From Bacteroidales bacterium (lineage in GTDB: Bacteria > Bacteroidota > Bacteroidia > Bacteroidales > P3), in contig JAGAYN010000044.1 of the NCBI GenBank assembly GCA_017940465.1, positions 3,662 to 67,661 on the forward strand: 64,000 nucleotides of DNA. The letters run 5' to 3'. The notes under the pieces were generated by a model. That model was given only the letters and a program-made list of their open reading frames with translations, made no database searches and had not been told where the DNA came from. Of the stretch, positions 1 through 63,045 are shown piece after piece; the stretch's first letter is position 1, and the number at the start of each line of letters is the position of its first letter. Position numbers and translations under genes: made by a program.

Positions 1-983
1 GCAGCATCATCGTGGTCATCATCGCCCTGCTGCCTGCACTGCTTTTCGGCATGTGGAACATCGGCTACCAGACCGCCATGAGCACCGGCGCCGGCGCCGA
101 CTGGCACTGGATCTACATGTGGTGGTTCGGATTCCTGCGCATGCTCCCCATGATTGCCGTCAGCTACATCGTCGGCCTGGCCATCGAGTTCGCCTTCGCT
201 CAATACCGCGGGCATGAGGTCAACGAGGGCTTCCTCGCCACCGGCCTGCTCATCCCGATGATTGTCCCCGTTACCACGCCCCTGTGGCAACTGGCGCTGG
301 CCGTGGCCTTCGCTGTCATCATCGGCAAGGAGGTCTTCGGCGGCAGCGGCATGAACTTCCTCAATCCCGCCCTCGTGGCGCGCGCCTTCCTCTTCTTCGC
401 CTACCCGACACACATGAGTGGCGACAAGGTGTGGATTGCCTCCACCTGGTGGGGCAACGACGCCATCGCCGGCGCCACGCCTATGGGCGAGCTGGCCACC
501 GGCTCCGCACCCTCGGCCTCGGCGCTGGACATGCTCATCGGCACCATCCCCGGCAGCACCTGCGAGACTTCGTTCATTGCCATCGCACTGGGCGCGATGC
601 TGCTGCTCTTCACCGGTATCGCCTCGTGGCGCATCATGCTCGGCGTCTTCCTCGGCGGCGGCCTCATGGGCCTGCTTTTCAACGCCATCGGCGGCAACGC
701 CTACATGGAATTGCCTTTCTACTACCACTTCCTGATGGGTGGCTTCGCCTTCGGTGCCGTCTTCATGGCCACCGACCCCGTCACCGCTGCGCAGACCAAC
801 GCCGGCAAATGGATCTACGGCCTGCTCATCGGCGTCTTCGCCGTACTGCTGCGCGTCTGCAACCCCGCCTACCCCGAGGGCATGATGCTCAGCATCCTCT
901 TCATGAACTGCATGGCCCCGCTGATAGACCACTGCATCGTGGCCAGAAACATTAAGATGAGAGAAAGGAGGATAGGAAAATGA
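1..983 (+). CDS. nqrB: Na+-translocating NADH:quinone oxidoreductase subunit B (5' end outside window)
   Basis: Frame is open to position 1 (listed ORF 12..983). Polytopic membrane protein with NqrB/RnfD-type motifs (GKEVFGGSGMNFLNPAL, FMATDPVT). 4-nt overlap with nqrC. Confidence 0.9.
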   Translation, partial: SIIVVIIALLPALLFGMWNIGYQTAMSTGAGADWHWIYMWWFGFLRMLPMIAVSYIVGLAIEFAFAQYRGHEVNEGFLATGLLIPMIVPVTTPLWQLALAVAFAVIIGKEVFGGSGMNFLNPALVARAFLFFAYPTHMSGDKVWIASTWWGNDAIAGATPMGELATGSAPSASALDMLIGTIPGSTCETSFIAIALGAMLLLFTGIASWRIMLGVFLGGGLMGLLFNAIGGNAYMELPFYYHFLMGGFAFGAVFMATDPVTAAQTNAGKWIYGLLIGVFAVLLRVCNPAYPEGMMLSILFMNCMAPLIDHCIVARNIKMRERRIGK

Positions 984-1609
984 AAAAGACTTTCAGCAAC
1001 CGCTACATCTTCATCTACTCCGCCGTGCTCGTCGTGGTGGCGGCGCTGATACTGACGGTCGTCGCCGTCAGCCTCAAGCCCGCCCAGGAGAAGAACCAGC
1101 AGGCCGAGACCAAGCAGATGATCCTCAAGACCATCGGCATCGACGCCACCCGCGACAACGCCGCCGAGCTCTACGCACAGAACATACAGGAAGCCGACCT
1201 CAAGGGAGAGCCCTACTTCACCTTCAAAGGCGGCGTCATCATCCCCCTGCGCGGCACCGGCCTTTGGGGTCCCATCTGGGGCTACCTGGCCTTCGACGAC
1301 GGTGGGACTGTCGTGGGCGCTGTGTTCGACCACAAAGGCGAGACCCCCGGCCTCGGCGGCGAGATTTCCACCGACAAGTTTGCCCAGCGTTTCGTGGGCA
1401 AAGAGATGTGCGAGGAGCCTATCCGCCTGAAGAAGAATGCCGACAAGGACAACCCCTACGAGGTGGACGCCATCAGCGGCGGCACCATGACCAGCAACGG
1501 CGTCACCGCCATGCTGGCTACCGCCTATGAGAAATACTCCGATGTGATACCCTGCCATGAGGACTGCGAAGCCATCTCGGCATTAATGATGGAGGAAGAA
1601 GAACAATGA
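980..1609 (+). CDS. nqrC: Na+-NQR subunit C
   Basis: 209 aa with N-terminal membrane anchor and FMN-attachment-type motif DAISGGTMTSNG. Overlaps both neighbours by 4 nt. Confidence 0.9.
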   Translation: MKKTFSNRYIFIYSAVLVVVAALILTVVAVSLKPAQEKNQQAETKQMILKTIGIDATRDNAAELYAQNIQEADLKGEPYFTFKGGVIIPLRGTGLWGPIWGYLAFDDGGTVVGAVFDHKGETPGLGGEISTDKFAQRFVGKEMCEEPIRLKKNADKDNPYEVDAISGGTMTSNGVTAMLATAYEKYSDVIPCHEDCEAISALMMEEEEQ

Positions 1610-2223
1610 AAAACACCGACCTTATAAAACTCCCCTTCAGCAAGAACAACCCCATCCTCGTGCAAGTGCTGGGCGTCTGCTCCTGCCTCGCGGTGACGGC
1701 GCAGCTCAAGCCTGCCGTCGTCATGGCCGTCTCGGTCACCGTCGTCGTGGCGCTGAGCAACCTCATCATCTCGCTCATGCGCAACACCATCCCGCCGCGC
1801 ATCCGCATCATCGTGCAGCTCGTCGTCGTCAGCACCCTCGTCGTGCTCGTCGACCAGGTGCTGAAGGCCTACATGTACGACGTCAGCAAGCAGCTCTCCG
1901 TCTTCGTCGGCCTCATCATCACCAACTGCATCGTCATGGGCCGCCTCGAAGCCTTCGCCATGGTGCAGAAGCCGTGGCCCTCGTTGCTCGACGGCCTCGG
2001 CAACGGCCTCGGCTACAGCGTCATCCTCATCGTCCTGGGCTTCGTCCGCGAACTCTTCGGCAGCGGCACCCTCTGGGGCTACCCTGTCGTGGAAAAGCTC
2101 GGCCTATATAATATTGGATACGAGAACAACGGCCTGATGATCATGCCTCCCATGGCCCTCATCCTCGTCGGCCTCATCATCTGGTGGCACCGCAGCCGCA
2201 ACAAAGACCTCGTCGAACAATAG
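1606..2223 (+). CDS. nqrD: Na+-NQR subunit D
   Basis: 205 aa multi-helix NqrD/RnfE-like membrane protein (ITNCIVMGRLEAFA). Overlaps the nqrC stop. Confidence 0.9.
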   Translation: MKNTDLIKLPFSKNNPILVQVLGVCSCLAVTAQLKPAVVMAVSVTVVVALSNLIISLMRNTIPPRIRIIVQLVVVSTLVVLVDQVLKAYMYDVSKQLSVFVGLIITNCIVMGRLEAFAMVQKPWPSLLDGLGNGLGYSVILIVLGFVRELFGSGTLWGYPVVEKLGLYNIGYENNGLMIMPPMALILVGLIIWWHRSRNKDLVEQ

Positions 2224-2279
2224 CCATCAACCTCATATGACATCACAATTTGTGACCGCATAATGAAACACAACAACTT

Positions 2280-2915
2280 ATGAGCGACAAACTAATCATA
2301 TCCGGAAATCAGCAGTCCGAGAACATCAAGAATGCCATCTATGAAGTCAGAGGGCAGAAAGTGATGCTCGATTACGACCTTGCCGCAATATATGGCGTTA
2401 AGACGGCCACTCTCAACCAGGCCGTTAAACGAAACATAGAGCGTTTCCCTGAAGATTTCATGTTTCGTCTTACAGAAGATGAGTGGGATGGACTCTTCAA
2501 TTCGGGTATGATATCACAAATTGTGACATCATCACTCAGCAAACGTAAAAAGACGGCTTCTCCCTATGCTTTTACCGAACATGGCGCCGTGATGTTGGCC
2601 GCCGTTCTTCGCAGTCCAAGTGCCGTACAAATGAGCGTGATGGTGACAAGAGCCTTTATCGCCATGCGTCAGGCAATATCCACAATGCTCGCGGTTGATT
2701 TGAAGGTGGAGCAGATTTCCCACAAGGTAGACCAACTGAACGCCTACGTTGAAGAGATATTGCATGACCAGAACGACATCAACGAGCAGCAGGAGCTGAC
2801 AAACAATGAGATTGCCACTCAGATAGAGGCAATCAACGACGCCCTCGACCAACTACGGGACACCAAAGCCACCCCAAGAAAGCCCATCGGATTCAAATCG
2901 CCCACCCATGAGTAA
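2280..2915 (+). CDS. ORF6N (KilA-N-like) domain DNA-binding protein
   Basis: N-terminal block IYEVRGQKVMLDYDLAAIYGVKTATLNQAVKRNIERFPEDFMFRLT, then SQIVTSS and PYAFTEHGAVMLA, typical of the ORF6N domain. Coiled-coil C-terminus. Confidence 0.75.
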   Translation: MSDKLIISGNQQSENIKNAIYEVRGQKVMLDYDLAAIYGVKTATLNQAVKRNIERFPEDFMFRLTEDEWDGLFNSGMISQIVTSSLSKRKKTASPYAFTEHGAVMLAAVLRSPSAVQMSVMVTRAFIAMRQAISTMLAVDLKVEQISHKVDQLNAYVEEILHDQNDINEQQELTNNEIATQIEAINDALDQLRDTKATPRKPIGFKSPTHE

Positions 2916-3091
2916 CTCCCCGTATATTACCAATCCCATCAACTCCCATTAACCCCATGAACAATTCCCCCAATCCCTCGACAATCCTTCGACAATCCTT
3001 CGGCGGTCTTCCCACCCTCTCCCTTCTTCGTGCCTTCTTCGATCCTTCTATGATCCTTACTTTATAACAATGAAAACAAGATAAAAAAACG

Positions 3092-3865
3092 ATGAACGAT
3101 ATCTGGTTGAAATATTCTCAATATGGTGTTAGAGTATCTGTGTTGATAGGCAATCACAATATGGATAAGGACGACCGCTTTCTGGTTCCCTTCATTACAC
3201 GTCAGCGTAAATGGGGCCTGATGAACCGCAAAGGAGAACTGGTGGTGAATCCTGTTTATGATGCAATCTGTAATGACTGCCAAACGAAAGATGACCTAAT
3301 CATAGTGGGATTATTACATCCTTATGCGTTTTCTAAAGAAGATGGAACCATTGATGCGAGAGTTAAATATCACTATGGATTAATCCGCACAGACGGTACA
3401 ACGTTCTTGAATGTAAAATACAATAGTGTTACATTGGGTAGTTTGATAACCGTGATTGGTGATGATGGGTGCTTTGCAATGGATTACACCGGGAAGGTAA
3501 TTATACCCAAAGGAAGATATGCATGGATGGATGGCTTCGATGACGGGCTGGCTCGTGTGAATAAAACCATAGAAGGAAAAACAAAATGGGGTATTATTGA
3601 TTGCAACGGCGAAGAGGTTGCCCCTTTGGATTATGACAAAATTTGGAACTTTTATGGGAAAAATATGGACGGAACTAATTTTGAAAAGGATGGACAGAAA
3701 TACTATTTGAAGTTCGATTTGTTAAGACCTTTTGAGTATCAAAAGAAATACGAACTAACCGAGAGGCAAATCCGACAGAGGGAAAAAGGTGCATGGGACG
3801 AAGCAAAAGATATGTGGCTGGATGCTTTTGAGGGTGACCCTGATAATTATTGGAACATAGACTAA
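3092..3865 (+). CDS. WG-repeat (KWG) protein, cytoplasmic
   Basis: 257 aa with no signal peptide. Repeated units of the type KWGLMNRKGELVVNPVYD and KWGIIDCNGEEVAPLDYD. AT-rich codon usage unlike the flanking core genes. Confidence 0.65.
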   Translation: MNDIWLKYSQYGVRVSVLIGNHNMDKDDRFLVPFITRQRKWGLMNRKGELVVNPVYDAICNDCQTKDDLIIVGLLHPYAFSKEDGTIDARVKYHYGLIRTDGTTFLNVKYNSVTLGSLITVIGDDGCFAMDYTGKVIIPKGRYAWMDGFDDGLARVNKTIEGKTKWGIIDCNGEEVAPLDYDKIWNFYGKNMDGTNFEKDGQKYYLKFDLLRPFEYQKKYELTERQIRQREKGAWDEAKDMWLDAFEGDPDNYWNID

Positions 3866-3872
3866 TAAACAG

Positions 3873-4862
3873 ATGAAATACCGGCAATACAAAATAGTAC
3901 ACTTCTCCGAAATTGAGGACAAAAAGTTTGGCAGAGCATGGCGCATTCAGGCATTAGCCGAAGGAATACATCCCGACTGCACGGTTAGTTTTATGTTCTC
4001 CAATTTATACAGCAAAGCAGGGTTTTCGGAGTACTTCATCGCCCCCTACAACAATTATGTAATGGACGAGATAGAAGACATTGCTTTGCGCGGTGACGTA
4101 TGGTCGCCCGACACCAATGACTGGACGGTCGACAAGGAAAACACTATCGTGGACGGCATCCCCGTAATCACACACCACTATTGCGGTAGGTTGCAAGATA
4201 AGGCGCAGAAACCGGAGGACTGTAGTTCTCGAATTGCAAGTTGGATGCCATTATTCCAATTGATTATTGCAGAAAAATCCGACCTAAAACATAATACAGA
4301 TGCAGAAACAGGAATTGAATACTTTGAATGCGGAAAAGTGAAAGGATTTGTAAGTCCTTCGGCGATGAATGAACTTGGCAATGAGGTTTACAGCATGGGG
4401 GATTTCAAAGTGGCTATGATATCCTTCAAAGAAACCGCCCCCCAACCATGGCTGCTTTACGTTCCACCGAAATCCAAATTGGCAACAAGAAACACCTCGC
4501 AGCAACAAAGTGCAGATACATTACTCAAAATTGGAGAGTGGCGACAGGCTTTCCCCTTGGCAAAAAGAGCGATGGAGAAAAGCATGGAGGAAATGGGAAA
4601 GACTTTCAAATATGACTACAACATACTTAAGAAAGACCCCGAAGAGAATCCAGAAACTGGGATTTGCTTCGACCGCTTTGTTGAAAGCAATGTCCAACAT
4701 TTTCTACCTGCAATAAGAAATATGTTGAGAGTTTTCGACATGGCGATTAACGATATCGACAAGTGCAATGCAGCGGTGAATTACGAGGATGAACTGGAAG
4801 AAATAAAACAAACAGTTGACAAGATGGTGCACGATGCCAAAAAACCTTTTGAGAATGATTGA
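3873..4862 (+). CDS. Hypothetical protein (329 aa)
   Basis: Long ORF starting 7 nt after the WG-repeat gene stop, AT-rich like that neighbour. No motif I recognise. Confidence 0.6.
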   Translation: MKYRQYKIVHFSEIEDKKFGRAWRIQALAEGIHPDCTVSFMFSNLYSKAGFSEYFIAPYNNYVMDEIEDIALRGDVWSPDTNDWTVDKENTIVDGIPVITHHYCGRLQDKAQKPEDCSSRIASWMPLFQLIIAEKSDLKHNTDAETGIEYFECGKVKGFVSPSAMNELGNEVYSMGDFKVAMISFKETAPQPWLLYVPPKSKLATRNTSQQQSADTLLKIGEWRQAFPLAKRAMEKSMEEMGKTFKYDYNILKKDPEENPETGICFDRFVESNVQHFLPAIRNMLRVFDMAINDIDKCNAAVNYEDELEEIKQTVDKMVHDAKKPFEND

Positions 4863-4902
4863 AGGAATTGACCACCGTAAAGGAGTACGCTACACCTCGT
4901 TT

Positions 4903-5298
4903 ATGACGCCGAATACCTACGTGCCGTTAGTTGACACCACGCACACCGACCCCATAGACACGGGCGACGTGCGCATCACGCTGGTGGACGACGGCACGGC
5001 ACTGGTGGCCTACCCCAACCCCTTCCGCCAGAGGGTCACCATCCGAATTGAAAACTCCGACTTGAAAACCGTGAACGGCGTCGCCACCGCCATCCTCACC
5101 GACCTCTCCGGCCGCCGCGAGCAAGTACCCCTCACCCCGCAGGGCCACTCAAGCAATAACACAATAACGCAATCAAGCACCTACACCCTCGACCTCACCT
5201 CCCGCCCCCAATCCACCTACCTCCTCACCCTCACCACCACCACCGGCCACCAACACACCCTCCGCCTCCTCAAACAAGCAGACATCTTCGGAAGATAA
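4903..5298 (+). pseudogene. Orphan T9SS type-A C-terminal sorting domain fragment
   Basis: Encodes only a CTD-like segment (ALVAYPNPFRQRVTIRIENSDL, YTLDL, YLLTLTT, LRLLKQ). No signal peptide or functional domain upstream. 4903 is the first in-frame ATG beyond the preceding gene. A GC shift occurs just upstream. Confidence 0.55.
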
Positions 5299-5325
5299 AA
5301 CAATATACGTAAAAAACAATCAACT

Positions 5326-6390
5326 ATGGCGGACAACAAACCTACCAACAACGGCGATGCTCTGGATTTATTCCACGACGTATGTCAGATTATCGACGGT
5401 GTGCGCACCCGGGTGGCGGTGTATGTCAACTCCGAGGTGTGCCTCACCAACTGGCATATTGGCAAACGCATCAAAGAGGATGTCCTTTTCAACCAGCGCG
5501 CCGAATACGGCAAACAGGTGCTTAAGACGCTGTCCGCCAAGCTGACCGAACGCTATGGCCGCGGCTGGAGCCACAAAACTTTGCTGCATTGTCTCCGCGT
5601 CGCGGAGACTTTTACAGAAGATGAAATTGTGTACGCAGTGCGGAGACAATTCTCTTGGACGCATATCAAGACTTTAATGTATATAGACGACCCTCTGAAA
5701 CGCCGTTTCTATATGGAGATGTGCCAGATAGAGCATTGGGACACTCGTACTCTCGACTTGAAGATTGACAGCCAGCTCTACGAGCGCAGTGCCATCAGCC
5801 GCCGCCCTGCGGAGACTATCGAAAAAGAGTTGCAGCAGGTGTCCGAACAACAGACGCTGGTGCCCGATATGGTGTTTCGCAGCAGCTATTTCCTTGATAT
5901 GCTCGGACTGCCCGACATCTTCAGCGAACGCGACCTGGAGGAAGCCATCATCACACAGATGCAATATTTCATCAACGAGATGGGGTCCGACTTCGCTTTC
6001 CTTGCCCGACAGAAACGGATTACAGTGGATGCCACTGACTATTATATCGACCTCCTTTTCTATCACCGTGGACTGCGCCGCTTGGTAGCAATCGACCTCA
6101 AGCTGGGACGCTTCAAGCCAGAACACGAAGGGCAGATGCGCCTGTACCTCCGCTACCTCGACCGCAACGAGCGTCGGCAGGGCGAGGAGTCGCCCATCGG
6201 TCTCATCCTGTGCTCCGAAGGCAATACCGAACATATTGAGTATCTGATGCTCGACGAGGAAAGTCCCATCAAAGTGGCCCAGTACTACACCCAATTGCCC
6301 GACAAGAAACTGCTGGCCGAGAAACTGCAACGGGCTATTGCCATCGCTCGCGAACATTGTTCTCAAAATAACAAATACAACAAAGAATGA
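5326..6390 (+). CDS. DUF1016/YhcG-type PD-(D/E)xK nuclease family protein
   Basis: 354 aa. N-terminal block (VNSEVCLTNWHIGKRI, RAEYGKQVLKTLS, GRGWS) and C-terminal core (IDLLFYHRGLRRLVAIDLKLGRFKPEHEGQMRLYL) match this family as I remember it. Confidence 0.7.
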   Translation: MADNKPTNNGDALDLFHDVCQIIDGVRTRVAVYVNSEVCLTNWHIGKRIKEDVLFNQRAEYGKQVLKTLSAKLTERYGRGWSHKTLLHCLRVAETFTEDEIVYAVRRQFSWTHIKTLMYIDDPLKRRFYMEMCQIEHWDTRTLDLKIDSQLYERSAISRRPAETIEKELQQVSEQQTLVPDMVFRSSYFLDMLGLPDIFSERDLEEAIITQMQYFINEMGSDFAFLARQKRITVDATDYYIDLLFYHRGLRRLVAIDLKLGRFKPEHEGQMRLYLRYLDRNERRQGEESPIGLILCSEGNTEHIEYLMLDEESPIKVAQYYTQLPDKKLLAEKLQRAIAIAREHCSQNNKYNKE

Positions 6391-6442
6391 GCACAACAAC
6401 GACTAACAAATTAACAAATTAACGAATTAACAAATTCAATAA

Positions 6443-7057
6443 ATGGACTACGTAAACATATTCATCAAGTCGATTTTCGTCGACAACATGATTTTCGCTT
6501 TCTTCCTCGGCATGTGTTCCTACCTGGCCGTGAGCAAGACGGTGAAGACCTCGGCGGGTCTCGGCATCGCAGTTACTTTCGTGCTGCTTATCACCGTTCC
6601 CATCAACTACCTGCTCAACAAATACTTCCTGGCCGACGGCGCGATGGCGTGGATTTCGCCGTCGCTGGCGGATGTGGACCTCTCGTTCTTGAGCCTCATC
6701 ATGTTCATCGCCGTCATCGCGGCCATTGTGCAGATGGTGGAGATGGTGGTGGAGAAGTTCAGCCCGAGCCTCTACAACTCTTTGGGCATCTTCCTGCCGC
6801 TGATAGCGGTGAATTGCGCGGTCATGAGTGGCTCGCTCTTCATGCAGGAACGCGGCTACCAGAACATCGGCGAGGCCACGGTCTTCGCCCTGGGCAGCGG
6901 CATCGGCTGGTTCCTGGCCATCGTGGCCATCGCCGCCATCCGTGAGAAGTTGCGCTACAGCCACATCCCGCCCGCCCTCCGCGGCGTCGGCATCACCTTC
7001 ATCATCACCGGCCTCATGGGCTTGGCATTCATGTCATTCATGGGATTCAAACTCTAA
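6443..7057 (+). CDS. nqrE: Na+-NQR subunit E
   Basis: 204 aa NqrE/RnfA-like six-helix membrane protein, followed by nqrF. Confidence 0.9.
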
Positions 7058-7099
7058 CCGCCCATTAAGCTCATTAGTCCCATTAAACCCATTAGCCCC

Positions 7100-8389
7100 A
7101 TGACTACAACATTAACTTCAGCAATCATCATCATCCTGGTCGTCATCCTGCTGCTGGTGGCGCTGCTCCTTGTGCTGCGCGCCAAGCTGGTGCCGCAGGG
7201 CAACGTCAAGATTACCATCAATGAAGATAAGGAACTCACCGCCCCGACGGGAGGCACCCTCATCTCCACCCTCGGCGAGCAAGGCATCCACCTGCCCTCG
7301 GCCTGCGGCGGCAAAGGCAGCTGCGGCCAGTGCAAATGCCGTGTCGTCCGTGGCGGCGGCGAGATTCTCCCCACCGAGAAAGGCTTCTTCAGCCGCAAGC
7401 AGCAGCAGGAGGGCTGGCGCCTCGGCTGCCAGGTGAAGGTCAAGGAAGACCTCGCCCTCCGGCTCCCCGAGAGCATCCTCAGCATCAAGGAATACGAGTG
7501 CACCGTGGTCAGCAACAGCAACGTCGCCACCTTCATCAAGGAGTTCAAGGTGCAGCTGCCCGCCGGCGAGCACATGGACTTCGTGCCCGGCAGCTACGCC
7601 CAGATCAAGATACCGAAGTTCACGGTGAAATACAGCGACTTCGACCGCTCCCTCATCGGAGACGAGTACCTGCCCGCCTGGGAGAAGGCGGGGATGTTCG
7701 ACCTCGTCTGCACGAACACCGAGCCCACCGTCCGCGCCTACTCCATGGCCAACTATCCCGCCGAGGGCGACGTCTTCATGCTCACCGTCCGCATCGCCAC
7801 CCCGCCGCTCACCGCCGACCGCAGCGGATTCCAGAAGGTCAACCCCGGCATCGCCTCTTCTTATATATTCTCGCTCAAGCCCGGCGACAAGGTCATCATG
7901 AGCGGCCCCTACGGCGAGTTCAGCGTCCGCGGCACCGCCGACGGCACCTGGAGCGACGACCCCAAGGGCAACGAGATGATCTGGGTCGGCGGCGGCGCCG
8001 GCATGGCCCCCCTCCGCGCACAGATCATGCACCTCACCCGCACCCTCAACTGCACCCACCGCCCGATGCACTACTTCTACGGCGCCCGCGCCCTCAACGA
8101 GGTCTTCTACCTGCAGGATTTCCTCCAGCTCGAGCAGTCGCACCCCAACTTCCACTTCCACCTGGCGCTGGACCGTCCCGACCCTGCCGCCGACGCCGCC
8201 GGCGTGAAGTACACCCCCGGCTTCGTCCACAACGTCATGCTCGAGACCTACCTCAAGGACCACCTCGCCCCCGAGGACATCGAGTACTACATGTGCGGCC
8301 CCGGTCCCATGAGCAAGGCCGTCATCCAGATGCTCGACTCCCTCGGTGTCCAGCCCGAGAGCATCGCCTTCGACGACTTCGGCGGCTGA
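7100..8389 (+). CDS. nqrF: Na+-NQR subunit F
   Basis: N-terminal TM helix, 2Fe-2S motif CGGKGSCGQCKC, FAD/NADH domain (RAYSMANYP, GGGAGMAP). Confidence 0.92.
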   Translation: MTTTLTSAIIIILVVILLLVALLLVLRAKLVPQGNVKITINEDKELTAPTGGTLISTLGEQGIHLPSACGGKGSCGQCKCRVVRGGGEILPTEKGFFSRKQQQEGWRLGCQVKVKEDLALRLPESILSIKEYECTVVSNSNVATFIKEFKVQLPAGEHMDFVPGSYAQIKIPKFTVKYSDFDRSLIGDEYLPAWEKAGMFDLVCTNTEPTVRAYSMANYPAEGDVFMLTVRIATPPLTADRSGFQKVNPGIASSYIFSLKPGDKVIMSGPYGEFSVRGTADGTWSDDPKGNEMIWVGGGAGMAPLRAQIMHLTRTLNCTHRPMHYFYGARALNEVFYLQDFLQLEQSHPNFHFHLALDRPDPAADAAGVKYTPGFVHNVMLETYLKDHLAPEDIEYYMCGPGPMSKAVIQMLDSLGVQPESIAFDDFGG

Positions 8390-8603
8390 TTTCTGCTACT
8401 CCTGCTGGCCACCACAGTCAGCACGCAGCAGGCCCGCCGCTATTGAGCCGCCGGGCCACTCTCGTGGAACGCCTTCCACCAACACTTCTGGCAGCGCTAC
8501 CGCCTGCCAGCCTCTTGGCACCCCGTTCCTCCGAATTGTCTCGCTGGAGCATCGATGCACGCCTGATGCTGATGCGCAACAAATACGGATTCTTTTACTT
8601 TTT

Positions 8604-8878
8604 TTTGCCACGTCGGAAAAAGTTCGCATCTTTGCACTCGCAAAACCGATAGGACGGTTTGCCGAGAAAGTTGCATTATCGCCTTATTCCGATTGTGTGA
8701 ACCTAGACAATTTACACGTCATCCGTAAAGTTAGGAATAGAGGAAATCCGATATGCTCCCATGGATTGATATCCACCTGTGGGGCAATTCAGAATACCTT
8801 TATATTCACTTTACGGGGAAGTCTAGGCCCTCACACAAGAAGATAGAGACTTAATGGATGGCTCCACTTTCTTCGTTG
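8604..8878 (+). ncRNA. Conserved promoter + structured 5' leader element, copy A
   Basis: TTTG (8604-8607), 19 nt, CATCTTTG (8627-8634). Blockwise alignment to 58608-58893 and 61079-61365. Ends in AATGGATGGCTCCACTTTCTTCGTTG, 72 nt before the ATG at 8950. Confidence 0.6.
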
Positions 8879-8949
8879 TATTAATTCACTCGCCGAAGAG
8901 CCTGTTGGCAAACTAACAGTTGCGCACGACACGTACCAGTGACACATTT

Positions 8950-9951
8950 ATGACCCAAACACACAAACTCCTCACCCTGGCCCTCGCCGCCACCCTCGCC
9001 TTCGCAGCCTGCGACAAAGACGATAACTCGGGTAAACAAATTGAATGGATGGAGGATTATTACTACAGTTCCTCTAGTCGCTCTACCGATGGGCGTTTTC
9101 ACCGAACCAGATTCTCTTGGGAGGGAGGACAGCTTAGGCGGCTGGAGTATTTCGACGCCGACAATCAGCGGGTTATATACTACATCGAAATAGTCTACGA
9201 GGACGGCAAGGCGAAAGAGGTGCGCGGGTACGATGAGTCCGGGAAAGCATGGGAGTCTGCCACCCTCTCTGCCACCCTCTTCTACACGGATGACAAAATA
9301 ACGAGCATCCAGTCTTCTTCCTATGCCGTCACGTACGAATACAACTCCGCCGGCGAGCTGGTCAAAGTAACCGGGTCGGATGGCTCCACCACCACCTTCC
9401 TCTGGGAGAACGGCAACATTGTTGAAGAGCGCCATGAAGACAGAATCACGACCTATACCTACGACAACAAGACAAACCCATACCATTCGGCATGCATCGT
9501 TGCATACCTTGGTGAACCAGGCGCTCGAATGCTTTCCCGAAACAACATCGTCAGCGAAACCTACACAAGCGGAGACTACGAAAGCCGCGATGAGTATTCA
9601 TATACCTACGACGGCGACTACCCCACCACAGTAACATCCAACACCTCCGACGGAAAAGATGTTACCTACTTCCGCTATACCGACGGCAGCGGCATGTCCG
9701 CCCCGGACATGTGCCACATCAAAATCGAGGACGGATACGAAGACCATGAGAGTAGACCCTACTACGTATATGGCGTCGGCACCTATGCCAAAGGCGACAA
9801 GGTTATCATTAGCACAGATGCGGACTACTTCCACGACGACACCTTCTACATCTTCTCCCACTGGAGCGACGGCAACACCGACAACCCCCGCACCTTCACT
9901 GCCACCGCCGACGTCACCCTCCGGCCCGTCTACACAGCCGCCGAGTATTAA
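8950..9951 (+). CDS. Lipoprotein with YD/RHS-like beta repeats
   Basis: ATG 8950 gives MTQTHKLLTLALAATLAFAAC (lipobox). Repeat-like segments include YEYNSAGELVKV and YTYDNKTNPY. Paralog of 58974..59747 (shared FSWE block and repeat pattern). Confidence 0.8.
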   Translation: MTQTHKLLTLALAATLAFAACDKDDNSGKQIEWMEDYYYSSSSRSTDGRFHRTRFSWEGGQLRRLEYFDADNQRVIYYIEIVYEDGKAKEVRGYDESGKAWESATLSATLFYTDDKITSIQSSSYAVTYEYNSAGELVKVTGSDGSTTTFLWENGNIVEERHEDRITTYTYDNKTNPYHSACIVAYLGEPGARMLSRNNIVSETYTSGDYESRDEYSYTYDGDYPTTVTSNTSDGKDVTYFRYTDGSGMSAPDMCHIKIEDGYEDHESRPYYVYGVGTYAKGDKVIISTDADYFHDDTFYIFSHWSDGNTDNPRTFTATADVTLRPVYTAAEY

Positions 9952-9982
9952 AAAACACCCTCCACGGCTGCTCTATGCCCCT

Positions 9983-10016
9983 GGCCCGCGACCCCGTCGC
10001 GGGCCTTTCTCTTTTT
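9983..10016 (+). terminator. Rho-independent terminator of the 8950 gene
   Basis: GGCCCGCGA / TCGCGGGCC stem followed by TTTCTCTTTTT. Confidence 0.7.
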
Positions 10017-11283: not shown

Positions 11284-11317
11284 AATCTCAACTTTCACCT
11301 TTCAATTTTCAATTCGA

Positions 11318-13282
<1,965 letters not shown>

Positions 13283-14045: not shown

Positions 14046-14155
14046 CACCCGGAAGGTATCCTATAGGTATCCCATAGGTATCCTGTAGGTATTTACTTCG
14101 ACTGTGAACCGATATGGCCCACTTCCGGACCACATTCCTCCGCCCGTCGAAAAAA
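14046..14155 (+). repeat. 11-nt tandem-repeat intergenic element, GGTATCC subfamily, copy 1
   Basis: Units GGTATCCTATA, GGTATCCCATA, GGTATCCTGTA, GGTATTTACTT (14055-14098), flanked by CCGGAAG and TTCCGGACCA. About 85% identical by eye to 51183-51285. Confidence 0.75.
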
Positions 14156-30506: not shown

Positions 30507-30622
30507 CCGCGACTGGTCCGGATCGGTCCCGCCACCCGGACCGGCTCCCCACAGACCAACTCCGAGACAACTCCGTATCAACTCCGAGTCAACTCCGAGT
30601 CGACACCGACCCCCCTCCGGAG
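30507..30622 (-). repeat. 11-nt tandem-repeat intergenic element, CGGAGTTGA subfamily, copy 1 (inverted relative to 39424-39556)
   Basis: Units CCAACTCCGAG, ACAACTCCGTA, TCAACTCCGAG, TCAACTCCGAG, TCGACACCGAC (30556-30610). Flanked by CCGCGACTGGTCCGG and CCTCCGG. Confidence 0.8.
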
Positions 30623-39423: not shown

Positions 39424-39556
39424 CCGCCGGAGGAGGGTCGGAGTTGACTCGGAGTTGATACGGAGTTGTCTCGGAGTTGACTCGGAGTTGGTCCCCGGCA
39501 CGCATGTCCGGCTTCCGGAACCCGCCCGGAGCAGCCCCGGACCAATCGCGGAACGC
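39424..39556 (+). repeat. 11-nt tandem-repeat intergenic element, CGGAGTTGA subfamily, copy 2
   Basis: Units GTCGGAGTTGA, CTCGGAGTTGA, TACGGAGTTGT, CTCGGAGTTGA, CTCGGAGTTGG (39437-39491). Flanked by CCGGAGG and CCCCGGACCAATCGCGG. Confidence 0.8.
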
Positions 39557-51182: not shown

Positions 51183-51285
51183 CTCCGGACGGGCAGCGAC
51201 CCTATAGGTATCCCCCAGGTATCCCCTAGGTATTTACTTCGACTGAGAACCGATATGACCCTTTATGGACCATCTGAAAAAAAGT
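51183..51285 (+). repeat. 11-nt tandem-repeat intergenic element, GGTATCC subfamily, copy 2
   Basis: Units GGTATCCCCCA, GGTATCCCCTA, GGTATTTACTT (51207-51239), then CGACTGAGAACCGATATGACCC and ATGGACCA. Aligns with 14046-14155. Confidence 0.75.
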
Positions 51286-57370: not shown

Positions 57371-57441
57371 GGTCGTTTGGCCGAGGGGCTAGGCACAGGT
57401 CTGCAAAACCTGCTACTCCGGTTCAAATCCGGAAGCGACCT
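57371..57441 (+). tRNA. tRNA-Cys (GCA)
   Basis: Hand-folded cloverleaf: acceptor GGTCGTT/AGCGACC, anticodon arm CAGGT-CTGCAAA-ACCTG (anticodon GCA), T arm TCCGG-TTCAAAT-CCGGA, discriminator U. CCA is not encoded. Confidence 0.9.
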
Positions 57442-59969: not shown

Positions 59970-60863
59970 CTAATGCAGCGGGATGTGGCGCAACTGCTTC
60001 ATCTTCTTTGCGTTGAGGTGTGCCTGCTGGATGGTGGCGGGTGTCATGGCGGATTGCTGGAAGCGGTCGTAGACGATGTCCTCGGCCAGCGGCGAGGGGT
60101 GCGAGAGGTCGGGGCCGTAGAAGCGGTAGTCGCGCAGCTCGTCCAGCACAATTTCGTAGGCGGGGAAGTAGGAAATCGGAATTTGTAAGCTGAAAATCGA
60201 GAGCAGCTCCTCCACGGCCATCAGCAGGGTGGCCTTGCTGAGCTGGTTGCCGTGGGCACCGTCGGCCAGGTGGCGTATGGGGCTGACGGTGAAGATGATG
60301 TCGAGTCCGGGATTGAACTCCCTGAGTTTCACCAGCAGGGGTTTCCAAAGGGCGACGATTTCCCCCACCGGCATCCGCCGCCGCTCGAACATCGCCGCCG
60401 GCAGTTTGTGGCAGTTGGCCACCACCATCCGGGCGCCTTCGCCTTTCAGCCGGGGGATGAGGCCGTAGACCCATGCCGTGCCGAAGGTCACCATCAGCAC
60501 CCGTGCCGTATGCAATGCCTTGTGGGATTGGTGGATGCGGCTGTTGCATACCTCAAGCGTCTCCTCTGCCGTGGGGCGGGAGAAGGAGCCGTGGTGGTGC
60601 CACGAATGCCAAAGGCCCTCGTGCTGCACCAGGTCCCTGTCCGTGATTTCCCTGTCCTCCACCATGCGCTCCAGCGCCGCCGCCACCGACGCGGGATTGT
60701 ACAGCGTCCCGAACGGGTTCCGCTCCACACGGAATCCCCCCTCCTCCATCCTCCGCCCGATGGCATCGGCAAAGCACGAACCCATCGTCACCACCCCGTC
60801 CTCCATACTGATTTTCAACGGCATCGGCGACACCTCCACCGTGGTATAAAGCTGCATCTTCAT
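59970..60863 (-). CDS. GSCFA family protein
   Basis: Contains the GSCFA motif (VVTMGSCFADAIG). The start is probably at 60863 (MKMQLYTTV); the ORF is open to 60884. Confidence 0.8.
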   Translation of the reverse strand: MKMQLYTTVEVSPMPLKISMEDGVVTMGSCFADAIGRRMEEGGFRVERNPFGTLYNPASVAAALERMVEDREITDRDLVQHEGLWHSWHHHGSFSRPTAEETLEVCNSRIHQSHKALHTARVLMVTFGTAWVYGLIPRLKGEGARMVVANCHKLPAAMFERRRMPVGEIVALWKPLLVKLREFNPGLDIIFTVSPIRHLADGAHGNQLSKATLLMAVEELLSIFSLQIPISYFPAYEIVLDELRDYRFYGPDLSHPSPLAEDIVYDRFQQSAMTPATIQQAHLNAKKMKQLRHIPLH

Positions 60864-61078
60864 ATCTACATAGTTTATCCGCATAACGCTATATCACAAT
60901 GATTTATTACCCAACTATGTGAAAATAGCCAGTTACATGCCATTGCCACCACTCGTTACATATTATTTCATTCTATACGCATGATTCACAGCAATATAAC
61001 ATTGAACGTGCCAAATCTGGAATTGAATTCCAAATTTAGCCAGTGTGGATAGCCATCCTCCTATTCGCAGAAATATTT

Positions 61079-61365
61079 TTTGTCATATCTGGAAAAGTTT
61101 GTACCTTTGCACTCGCAAACCGCAAGAGTATGGTTTGCCGAGAAAGTTGCATTTTTCGCCTTATTCCTGGCTTGTGAAACTTCGACAACTTCACTAATGA
61201 TATACGGAACAAAGGATAGATTGATGCTCCTGATATGGTATATGTATTTTCCTATGCAATACCTTTGTGGAGCGGTTCATTACACCTTTATTTTATATCA
61301 TAGGGAGTCGAAGCCCTCACAAGCAAGATAGGGTTGCAAATGGAAGGCTCCACTTTCTTCGTTGC
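61079..61365 (+). ncRNA. Conserved promoter + structured 5' leader element, copy C
   Basis: TTTG (61079-61082), 19 nt, TACCTTTG (61102-61109). Ends in AATGGAAGGCTCCACTTTCTTCGTTGC, 72 nt before the ATG at 61438. Confidence 0.6.
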
Positions 61366-61437
61366 AAAATATATCTCAACGTGCCTTGGGAAAAAAAAAC
61401 TGAACCGCCAACAGTATAAAAGAGGCATAGTAACACC

Positions 61438-62889
61438 ATGAAAAAAACACTGTTTTTATGTATGTGCATCATCATGTTTGGGATGTCTGCAACTGCTCAA
61501 TATCAACTAACGCAGAGTATTGAACGCAAACTCCAAGGTAATCAGGAGACACTTAAGACGTTATCCAGCAATGGCGATGCAGAGGCCACGTACATACTAG
61601 GGTATCGAATGAAACTACAACCCTACAGAGACACCCTAAATCAGATGGCAAAAAACAAACAACCTGATGCGATGTTTTTCAAGTGGCTTTCATACCAATA
61701 CGGGAATGCATATCGCAGAAAGAAACCACTACTAAAGAAAACTGCCAAAAGTGGAAACAAATGGGCATGCTACATAATGGGGGAGATAACTCCATACAAA
61801 AAAAAGAAAGCAAAAAAGCAATGGTACATGAAGGCTGCTGAGGATAGTTGTGCAGACGCCTGCGTTGCACTATTAAAGTACTATTTTCCTGAGAATCAAA
61901 AAGACAGCATTTATATAATGATCAACAAAACTCTGGAGTTCTGTAAAGATGATAATGAACTCAAACATTTTGAGTATGAACTCGGCAAGGAACTCTATCA
62001 TTGCCTTCCTAAAGATGAAAAGGAACGAGAAAAGTACACATACATTATGCCTGACATAACTCAATTTCTTACAAATTCGTTTAATAATGGAAACTCTAAT
62101 GCTGCAGGGGAACTAATGAAATGCAATTACGAAAACCAAGACTATGAGCAAAGCATATACTATACATTCCAATACCTAGAGGCGTTCAGCAATCACATCC
62201 AGGTGAAAAGAGAATGTTATCTTAATTTATCCCGATGCTATCTTAAGACTGGAAAACCACAACTGGCAGAATCTTATGGCCTAGCGCGATATGAACTTAA
62301 CCTTAACGAATTTAACAATGGGCACTTACATTATGGATATCAGGCGTCTACCTCTGCAAAATGGATGAGCGAACTATATACTGAACTTGAAAGAGAAGAA
62401 GGGGCGCGATTGTGGTTTGAACGGGCAAAAGAGATTGAAAAACAGGCAAAGAAGTTGGAAAAATTAGCAAAAGAAAAAGAAAGACAGGCCCGATTGGAGC
62501 GTATTGCCAACGCCCTAGACAATGTCAATACAGTCCTGTCGGCAGCCAATGATTTGGCGACCCAAATCAACAATTACAAAGCCCCGTCATCTGCCAGCAC
62601 AACATCAGATTATTCAGGTTCCTCGTCCTCTACCAGCAAAAGCAGTCCCGGGAGAAAACACGACCCATATGCCGCCTCACATGAAGCCAACAAGCAGAAC
62701 GCCGAGAATATCTACCGTCGCTACAGCAACCAACTAATCGACATGAACACCAACTACGAGCGTGATTACAACGACAGCCAGCGCCGACAGATTCAAGCCA
62801 GCATGAAAAAGATACGCACCGAGTGGGAGCAAAAGGGCTATACGTTCTGGCATTCCCCATGGGAGAATTGGGACGGCCATAAACAATAA
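61438..62889 (+). CDS. Secreted Sel1/TPR-like protein with coiled-coil and Ser-rich C-terminal region
   Basis: Signal peptide MKKTLFLCMCIIMFGMSATAQ. Sel1-like units, a KEIEKQAKKLEKLAKEKERQARLE coiled coil and an S-rich tract. Markedly AT-rich compared with its surroundings. Confidence 0.75.
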   Translation: MKKTLFLCMCIIMFGMSATAQYQLTQSIERKLQGNQETLKTLSSNGDAEATYILGYRMKLQPYRDTLNQMAKNKQPDAMFFKWLSYQYGNAYRRKKPLLKKTAKSGNKWACYIMGEITPYKKKKAKKQWYMKAAEDSCADACVALLKYYFPENQKDSIYIMINKTLEFCKDDNELKHFEYELGKELYHCLPKDEKEREKYTYIMPDITQFLTNSFNNGNSNAAGELMKCNYENQDYEQSIYYTFQYLEAFSNHIQVKRECYLNLSRCYLKTGKPQLAESYGLARYELNLNEFNNGHLHYGYQASTSAKWMSELYTELEREEGARLWFERAKEIEKQAKKLEKLAKEKERQARLERIANALDNVNTVLSAANDLATQINNYKAPSSASTTSDYSGSSSSTSKSSPGRKHDPYAASHEANKQNAENIYRRYSNQLIDMNTNYERDYNDSQRRQIQASMKKIRTEWEQKGYTFWHSPWENWDGHKQ

Positions 62890-62909
62890 TACGGATATCT
62901 CTCCCAGCC

Positions 62910-63045
62910 AGTCTCCTGCCACATACCTGGCAAAGACGAAGAGGGGAAGAAGAGGATACCCTTAACATACTGGAAATCAACGGGCCAAAATCTGACGATT
63001 TTGGCCCGTTTTGGGGTTTTTGAACGGAAAATTTCGAGGTTCGGG
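62910..63045 (+). repeat. Conserved 3' element, copy C
   Basis: CTCCTGCC...GAGGGGAAGAAGAGGATACCCTTAACATACTGGAAATCAAC, followed by a hairpin with a T-run. Confidence 0.6.
62982..63021. terminator. Terminator hairpin between the 61438 gene and dnaE
   Basis: GGGCCAAAATC / GATTTTGGCCC stem followed by GTTTTGGGGTTTTT. Confidence 0.7.

Follow-up and report, generated by a model that had tools for sequence, protein, structure and literature searches.

The junction between nqrD and nqrE, two subunit genes of the sodium-pumping NADH dehydrogenase (nqr) operon, is a recurrent insertion hotspot in a clade of uncultured rumen Bacteroidales, and the 4.2-kb insert described here is one filling of it rather than a single event. 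The insert lies in 64,000 nucleotides (nt) of DNA from an uncultured rumen Bacteroidales bacterium, the whole of which is referred to below as the window. In Vibrio, Bacteroides and Prevotella, the canonical nqrABCDEF genes are contiguous. The same subunit genes follow one another in the same order in the window, again with overlaps of 4 nt between nqrB and nqrC and between nqrC and nqrD. The departure is the split between nqrD and nqrE, where 4219 nt (2224-6442) carry five open reading frames (ORFs), all on the nqr strand. Genes nqrE and nqrF are 42 nt apart. This layout, already reported in the initial annotation, was confirmed by the ORF map and by family scans:

12-983, plus strand: nqrB (ORF map)
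980-1609, plus strand: nqrC (ORF map)
1606-2223, plus strand: nqrD, the left conserved flank (ORF map, Pfam, NCBIfam)
6443-7057, plus strand: nqrE, the right conserved flank and proposed recombination anchor (ORF map, Pfam, NCBIfam)
7100-8389, plus strand: nqrF, preceded by a 9-nt array at 7061-7099 (ORF map, Pfam, NCBIfam)

NCBIfam equivalog scores exceeded their cut-offs for nqrD (301.6 versus 244.9), nqrE (308.3 versus 247.6) and nqrF (547.9 versus 295). Pfam agreed with NCBIfam, and the genes for NqrB to NqrF were intact and in canonical order. On identical contigs, nqrA was found upstream of the window and the wider gene order read fumC-nqrABCD-[insert]-nqrEF, followed by fumarate reductase genes. 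Exact-sequence look-ups with NqrD, NqrE and YhcG (the product of the last insert gene) retrieved 19-25 contigs each, and the identical five-gene arrangement was recovered from at least 24 independent contigs and at least 12 samples. Since these came from two ENA assembly projects as well as from Logan per-run assemblies, and since many contigs covered both junctions, an assembly chimera at 2224 or 6442, an eventuality raised in the initial annotation, has a negligible probability and was excluded. Every sampled member of the window's species carried the insert, which is fixed in that species.

Relatives were gathered by an NqrD scan with one genome per species, which provided 80 loci (cited below by their L numbers), all from uncultured Bacteroidales metagenome-assembled genomes (MAGs), mostly of rumen origin. 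All 34 species with an NqrD less than 90% identical to that of the window displayed an nqrD-nqrE gap of at most 156 nt. At 90% identity or more, 26 of the 46 species were tight, while the other 20 (about 40%) were filled with 0.4-4.5 kb. Tight spacers of 2-70 nt were present in every outgroup and in many sister species, and the five-gene set of the window occurred in none of the 80 representatives. Relatives do not, therefore, all carry the same genes at this place, and the initial description of the insert as accessory was upheld. The closest representative, L001 (NqrD 99% identical), has an empty site and a DNA identity of just 85-87%, so that the data hold no conspecific empty site. Six further filled loci were obtained from metagenome contigs scanned with a 17-base array pattern, most matches of which were due to chance and came from unrelated environments. 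A scan of viral contigs gave 21 matches, none of them coding for a relative of any Nqr protein or of any of the five proteins encoded by the insert.

About 28 gene families were recorded at the junction in these 26 filled loci and the window. They included TlpA-like AhpC/redoxin lipoproteins, a C25 peptidase with a type IX secretion system (T9SS) tail, an S41 peptidase, AAA_14/DUF4143 and ATPase_2 ATPases, RhuM, two type II restriction-modification (R-M) systems (C5 methyltransferase plus BsuBI/PstI-type endonuclease) and many unknown secreted proteins. Every real cargo gene lay on the nqr strand. The G+C content (GC) of the gap was below that of the flanks in every filled locus (0.35-0.54 versus 0.57-0.63). 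Only two genes of the window's cargo recurred at the junction, the WG-repeat gene in L013 (78% identity) and the T9SS tail in L030 (63%). In two relatives the operon further departs from the canonical one, since an identical co-oriented gene of the Cation_efflux family (281 amino acids, aa) splits nqrE from nqrF (L019:14058-14903 and L033:13096-13941). Spacers may also contain hairpins: between cassette and nqrE, a hairpin-bearing unit of about 50 nt (AATGGCC...GGCCATT) was repeated five times in tandem in L016 (12135-12424) and L033 (12161-12450), units of the same type were present in one or two copies in L010 and L027, and the otherwise empty spacer of L029 carried four AAAAGCCTCGCTTTT hairpins.

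DNA identity revealed the transfer of a cassette between species. The AAA_14/DUF4143 ATPase cassettes of L019 and L050 were 97-100% identical at the DNA level over about 1.35 kb, in contrast to the surrounding nqr genes (73% for nqrB-D, 71-85% for nqrE, about 65% for nqrF). Such a near-identical cassette amid divergent genes implies a recent inter-species transfer. The identical block displayed sharp edges at flanking copies of a composite repeat, made of an 8-nt array and the first 46 nt of nqrE. Blocks of raised identity, running from nqrD through the cassette to nqrE, were also recorded for the pairs L044/L051, L016/L033 and L006/L067; identity dropped in nqrA-C for the first two pairs and in nqrF for all three.

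The 8-nt array consists of three to four copies of TAACRCAT directly before the nqrE ATG, and in several empty sites it forms the entire nqrD-nqrE spacer. In multi-cassette loci (L019, L021, L035, L050, L166 and L198), the array recurred between cassettes together with 5' fragments of nqrE (35, 46, 73, 110 and about 128 nt). In L166 an nqrE fragment was joined to the last 42 nt of nqrD, a fusion that would be the clearest sign of circle or tandem integration. The 6-kb filling of this locus (oriented coordinates 1179-7266) contains two complete type II R-M cassettes plus an ATPase. Microhomology was also encountered: the junction between GACAACA and CAAACAATATG shares ACAAnATG with the nqrE sequence GACAACATG.

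The TAACRCAT array was considered as a cassette-specific site and rejected, since the same arrays stand right before the nqrF and frdA start codons elsewhere. Among the relatives' TAACRMAT-type arrays, 48 of 77 have the ATG of a long ORF (nqrE, nqrF or frdA) within 60 nt, mostly at -1 to 9 nt. Short arrays repeating every 7-9 nt were found immediately before start codons at intra-operon junctions in the window and in L001-L080, and the unit at a given junction varied between species. The window itself displays CCCATTAAR (3.8 copies, 7061-7099) before nqrF and TCAAYTT (four copies, 11285-11316) before a fumarate reductase flavoprotein-like gene that starts with the ATG at 11318. In these bacteria, which are devoid of Shine-Dalgarno sequences, such arrays may provide an unstructured leader for translation start, or a three-frame stop allowing reinitiation.

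The window insert itself is composite, as shown by the following features:

2224-2236, plus strand: left junction CCATCAACCTCAT, an imperfect direct repeat of 2936-2950 and one unit of the 9-10-nt repeat tract found right after nqrD in L033 and L030
2235-2279, plus strand: 45-nt module upstream of the ORF6N gene, with a mini-ORF (MTSQFVTA followed by a stop) and the palindrome TCACAATTTGTGA
2280-2915, plus strand: ORF6N-domain protein, 211 aa (Pfam ORF6N, 1.5e-33; GC 0.48)
2934-3058, plus strand: scar, with 10-nt repeats (2934-2962) and an array displaying (G/A)ATCCTTC every 11 nt (2971-3058)
3092-3865, plus strand: WG-repeat protein, 257 aa (Pfam WG_beta_rep; GC 0.40)
3873-4862, plus strand: U329, 329 aa, without Pfam family, starting 7 nt past the WG gene (GC 0.43)
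4863-5298, plus strand: T9SS tail remnant, Por_Secre_tail only (GC 0.596)
5326-6390, plus strand: YhcG/DUF1016 protein of the PD-(D/E)XK nuclease family, 354 aa (DUF1016_N and YhcG_C; GC 0.525)
6399-6442, plus strand: native pre-nqrE spacer, GAC, four copies of TAACAAAT and TCAATAA, homologous to the whole spacer of empty sites L004, L012, L032 and L049

Comparison of the nqrD-nqrE junctions, as proposed in the initial annotation, thus provided the empty-site spacer. Since 6399-6442 matches it, the right end of the foreign DNA was placed at about 6398. The array of the 8-nt unit TAACAAAT (four copies) occupies 6404-6436. The base composition profile likewise agreed with foreign origin, the insert having a GC of 0.47 versus 0.585 for the window, with segments ranging from 0.40 to 0.60. 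The mosaic initially described was retained in part: its AT-rich left side holds for the WG, U329 and ORF6N genes, whereas a host-like composition from about 4900 applies to the T9SS tail and not to YhcG, which is intermediate and below fully host-like. A second low-GC stretch (0.39-0.47 in 1-kb windows), at about 60500-63000 of the window, deviates as much as the nqr insert.

As to boundaries, the initial annotation had reported neither integrase, transposase, tRNA nor direct repeats. The first three statements stood. The precomputed Pfam annotation of identical contigs lists neither integrases nor transposases up to about 10 kb to either side, Pfam revealed no mobility genes among the insert ORFs, and no tRNA occurred within 50 kb of the insert, the nearest one lying at 57371. 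Inverted repeats, terminal ones included, were not found at insert or cassette borders, and an Rfam scan of 1-10000 gave nothing at E-values up to 0.1. The last statement was revised, given the arrays at 6404-6436 and 2971-3058 and an imperfect 13-nt direct repeat, CCATCAAC(C)TC(C)CAT, whose copies (2224-2236 and 2936-2950) bracket the ORF6N unit. It is the only flanking repeat.

Several layers could be distinguished. The ORF6N unit appears to have been inserted into a repeat tract. Its 45-nt upstream module preceded ORF6N homologues in unrelated contexts (L250, L252, L254 and L256), and decayed scars of it were detected in five other nqr loci. The palindrome TCACAAnTTGTGA was therefore rejected as an att-like cassette boundary, being part of the ORF6N gene's own module, and its copies in other nqr gaps are best read as scars of displaced ORF6N units. 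To the right, the T9SS tail displayed 63% protein identity to the 3' end of a gene for more than 637 aa that follows nqrD in L030. Gene callers started this ORF at 4816 or 4834 (154-160 aa), and 4816-5298 is the remnant of a T9SS-secreted protein gene, its C-terminal sorting domain surviving, rather than a whole gene. The WG plus U329 segment ends at about 4863-4932, within this remnant, and in L013 the WG gene likewise follows a leader remnant (see below); WG and U329 replace the 5' part of the T9SS gene. YhcG is a further layer, between that remnant and the native pre-nqrE array. The insert consequently records at least four events (ORF6N unit, leader remnant, WG and U329 over the T9SS tail, YhcG), which supports and extends the minimum of two layers proposed initially.

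The cargo of the window is accessory, and two of its five genes belong to candidate, not proven, defence families. The ORF6N protein matched PADLOC candidate family PDC-S05 (6.5e-49) as well as phage anti-repressor families; it resembles an anti-repressor or a KilA-N-type DNA-binding protein. More than 7,700 homologues make its family a very large one. YhcG matched candidate family PDC-S02 (3.1e-121) and also a PHROG family. By comparison, the defence content of relatives comprised the two type II R-M systems, RhuM and the AAA_14/DUF4143 ATPases, yet alongside many secreted proteins. The 48 proteins of the U329 family all come from Prevotella or Bacteroidales MAGs, and elsewhere its members sit in accessory islands among toxin-antitoxin and R-M genes. 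Genes upstream of these homologues displayed no homology to the WG protein, and an AlphaFold2 model of U329 (17-sequence alignment) was unusable, with a mean predicted local distance difference test score (pLDDT) of 49.7.

ORF6N units were also met outside the junction. At L044:13837-13874, a remnant of the 45-nt module stands right after the nqrF stop with no ORF behind it, which suggests that a cassette once stood at the operon's 3' end. In L252, L254, L256 and L259, ORF6N homologues 80-86% identical to that of the window, and preceded by the same module, head another variable co-oriented string, at the end of which stand a conserved UPF0102/NERD gene, sodB and a Mg-chelatase-like gene. What the string contains varies by genome, with DUF4357 in one and two DUF488 genes together with DuOB in another. 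The heads of strings of this kind may be marked, or regulated, by ORF6N units.

The left side of the junction displayed a signature of its own. In 21 of the 26 filled loci, an ATG overlaps the nqrD stop (ATGA) and starts a conserved leader (MxxSxxILCLLRSFxDPSxILRR), whose coding sequence is an array in which GATCCTTC recurs every 11 nt. This leader runs into a full TlpA-like protein of 425-437 aa in six loci and, in one, into a fused lipoprotein; otherwise it persists as a remnant of 22-67 codons. The full genes, which code for a TlpA-like thiol:disulfide oxidoreductase with an unusually long N-terminal leader, lie just after nqrD in L003, L019, L022, L023, L198 and L236. In the window, 2971-3058 is a leader remnant homologous to the left ends of L016, L033, L030 and L013. 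Here the nqrD stop is TAG and consequently, unlike most filled relatives, there is no ATGA-overlapping start. Outside this locus, the 11-nt leader array was found neither in 1.4 Mb of related sequence nor in the window. Because the array is confined to this locus and kept as a remnant in most filled loci, the nqrD-coupled TlpA-like gene probably occupied the junction early on and was then displaced. The GATCCTTC array was rejected, as a primary reading, as a recombinase site or phase-variation tract, since it is a coding leader (or its remnant) coupled to nqrD. In L166, a C5 DNA methyltransferase starts at an ATG inside the leader array, in another reading frame. Other 11-nt arrays were present in the window (30557-30609, 39438-39490, 14054-14092 and 51206-51233), the first two sharing the unit CAACTCCGAGT on opposite strands, 8.8 kb apart.

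Expression signals were scarce within the insert. The absence of a TAnnTTTG box before nqrE, mentioned in the initial annotation, extended over 5900-6445 (540 nt before nqrE) even with one mismatch allowed, and with the same tolerance no box was found directly upstream of the ORF6N, WG and YhcG genes. The sole perfect plus-strand box within the insert lies at 3676. Scans for sigma-70-type promoters and terminators gave nothing above shuffled expectation. With neither a promoter box nor an above-chance terminator before nqrE, the most economical inference is that cargo and nqrEF are transcribed by read-through from the operon promoter, which would also explain the strict co-orientation of the cargo.

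Recurrence of the hotspot, foreign composition, inter-species transfer of a cassette and the scars are shown by the sequences, and it is likely that they reflect a variable locus between core genes, in which homology-anchored recombination fills the junction and the operon promoter drives the cargo. The recombination pathway, the route of DNA uptake and the read-through transcription are inferred. Incoming DNA would be homologous to nqrE (together with the 8-nt-repeat spacer at its translation start), to nqrD or to both, and would be fixed by homologous recombination in these flanks. The other end would sometimes join illegitimately at microhomology, either by homology-facilitated illegitimate recombination (HFIR) or by Campbell-type circle integration. 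Newer arrivals would displace older ones, leaving leader remnants, nqrE 5' fragments and gene tails as scars. Insertions that left nqrE intact and transcription unblocked would be those that survive, a selection that would account for the co-oriented and mostly promoterless cargo, read through with nqrEF from the operon promoter.

Some observations weigh against this explanation. The window insert contained no nqrE or nqrD fragment that would assign its own insertion events to one pathway or another. The cassette shared by L019 and L050 is flanked, in each genome, by two arrays of the resident type. One simple Campbell event would not be expected to leave such a pattern, and gene conversion between repeats or a double crossover within very short homology would be needed. 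A site-specific recombinase acting in trans is conceivable. Some cassettes of relatives (ATPases) have their own TAnnTTTG box, so that not all cargo is promoterless. Finally, a defensive role leans on candidate PADLOC families, and the cargo of relatives consists largely of secreted or envelope proteins.

We would suggest, very tentatively, that the clade has made of the nqr junction a dedicated platform on which genes are captured and expressed. Promoterless cassettes would sit between two reusable modules, the ATGA-coupled leader (MxxSxxILCLLRSFxDPSxILRR) and the tandem 8-nt array before the nqrE ATG, and would be shuffled between species by recombination in these modules. With the respiratory promoter driving the cassettes, the locus would functionally be an integron without integrase.

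A true integron-like capture, in which a recombinase encoded elsewhere acts at the 8-nt array and nqrE start with the nqr promoter as cassette promoter (Pc), seems unlikely, although it would fit the co-oriented, mostly promoterless strings, the repeated array-nqrE copies that separate cassettes, the sharp edges of the transferred ATPase cassette at these repeats and their host type on both sides in L019 and L050. No integrase is encoded within about 10 kb, the repeats are direct arrays instead of attC-like imperfect palindromes, and their presence before nqrF and frdA marks them as a general pre-start feature rather than a dedicated site. Moreover, the nqrE junctions vary in position and one lies in nqrD, which illegitimate joining fits better.

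It is even less likely that the insert is one decayed mobile element (prophage, integrative element or transposon) that was inserted once and lost its integrase. The matches of ORF6N to phage anti-repressor families and of YhcG to a PHROG family, together with the low GC, would agree with such an origin. Yet homologues of the segments occur apart at the same junction (leader remnant in many species, WG in L013, T9SS tail in L030), the segments span the GC range given above, terminal inverted repeats, integrase and tRNA are lacking, and more than 25 other fillings are equally devoid of mobility genes.

An ancestral arrangement with differential loss since is the least probable of these histories, very improbable indeed: the nqrD-coupled leader or remnant common to 21 of 26 filled loci speaks for it, and one early TlpA-like insertion was probably ancestral to part of the clade, but the 34 more distant species are all tight, the cargo families are mutually unrelated and of foreign GC, a near-identical cassette is shared by two divergent species, and of the window's genes just WG and the T9SS tail recur. 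For the window cargo, such an ancestry is largely refuted.

The nqr locus is a variant of two known kinds, core-flanked variable hotspots and displacement arrays. Core defence hotspots of Pseudomonas aeruginosa occupy a fixed site between core genes, with variable content, no mobility genes of their own and an exchange attributed to recombination in the flanks (PMC10250203). The nqr locus resembles them by its conserved flanks, variable content among close relatives and lack of mobility genes, and its cargo does so by including R-M systems, RhuM, AAA ATPases and candidates PDC-S02 and PDC-S05. Like them, it displays the same flanks around differing content and horizontal exchange (97-100% identity in the cassette versus 65-85% in the flanks). 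It differs by its position inside one operon, between subunit genes of one respiratory enzyme, and by a cargo that is co-oriented, mostly promoterless, in part translationally coupled to nqrD and in large part secreted or envelope-associated.

Orphan immunity arrays in the type VI secretion clusters of Vibrio cholerae, as well as the displacement of Rhs C-termini, were attributed to sequential displacement by HFIR (PMC5361080 and references therein). The nqr locus likewise displays an anchor beside a variable region, displacement, truncated remnants and partial anchor copies, and the HFIR signature (anchor fragments and microhomology) was present in the six multi-cassette loci listed above, though not as an anchor fragment in the window insert. 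In contrast, its anchors are respiratory genes, its cargo consists of unrelated single genes instead of effector-immunity pairs, and remnants occur on both sides (leader on the left, nqrE 5' fragments on the right). Integron arrays are similar in that co-oriented, mostly promoterless cassettes follow one another at a single site behind a strong promoter, with recurring short separators. At the nqr locus, however, neither IntI (within about 10 kb on either side) nor attC hairpins were found, the separators are partial nqrE copies plus spacer, and the junctions vary. Nor does the locus display the mobility genes or the tRNA or att target of genomic islands, prophages and integrative elements, the imperfect 13-nt repeat around the ORF6N unit being the only flanking repeat. 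No earlier description of an insertion hotspot between nqrD and nqrE was found in the literature.

A core bioenergetic operon thus repeatedly tolerates kilobases of foreign DNA between subunit genes of one membrane complex, which implies that operon integrity is less constrained than usually assumed. Conserved housekeeping genes can act as cross-species homology arms for gene flow in uncultured rumen Bacteroidales. The locus further constitutes a natural test bed for read-through, translational coupling and pre-start tandem arrays in bacteria without Shine-Dalgarno sequences, as well as a compact place in which to seek new accessory and candidate defence genes.

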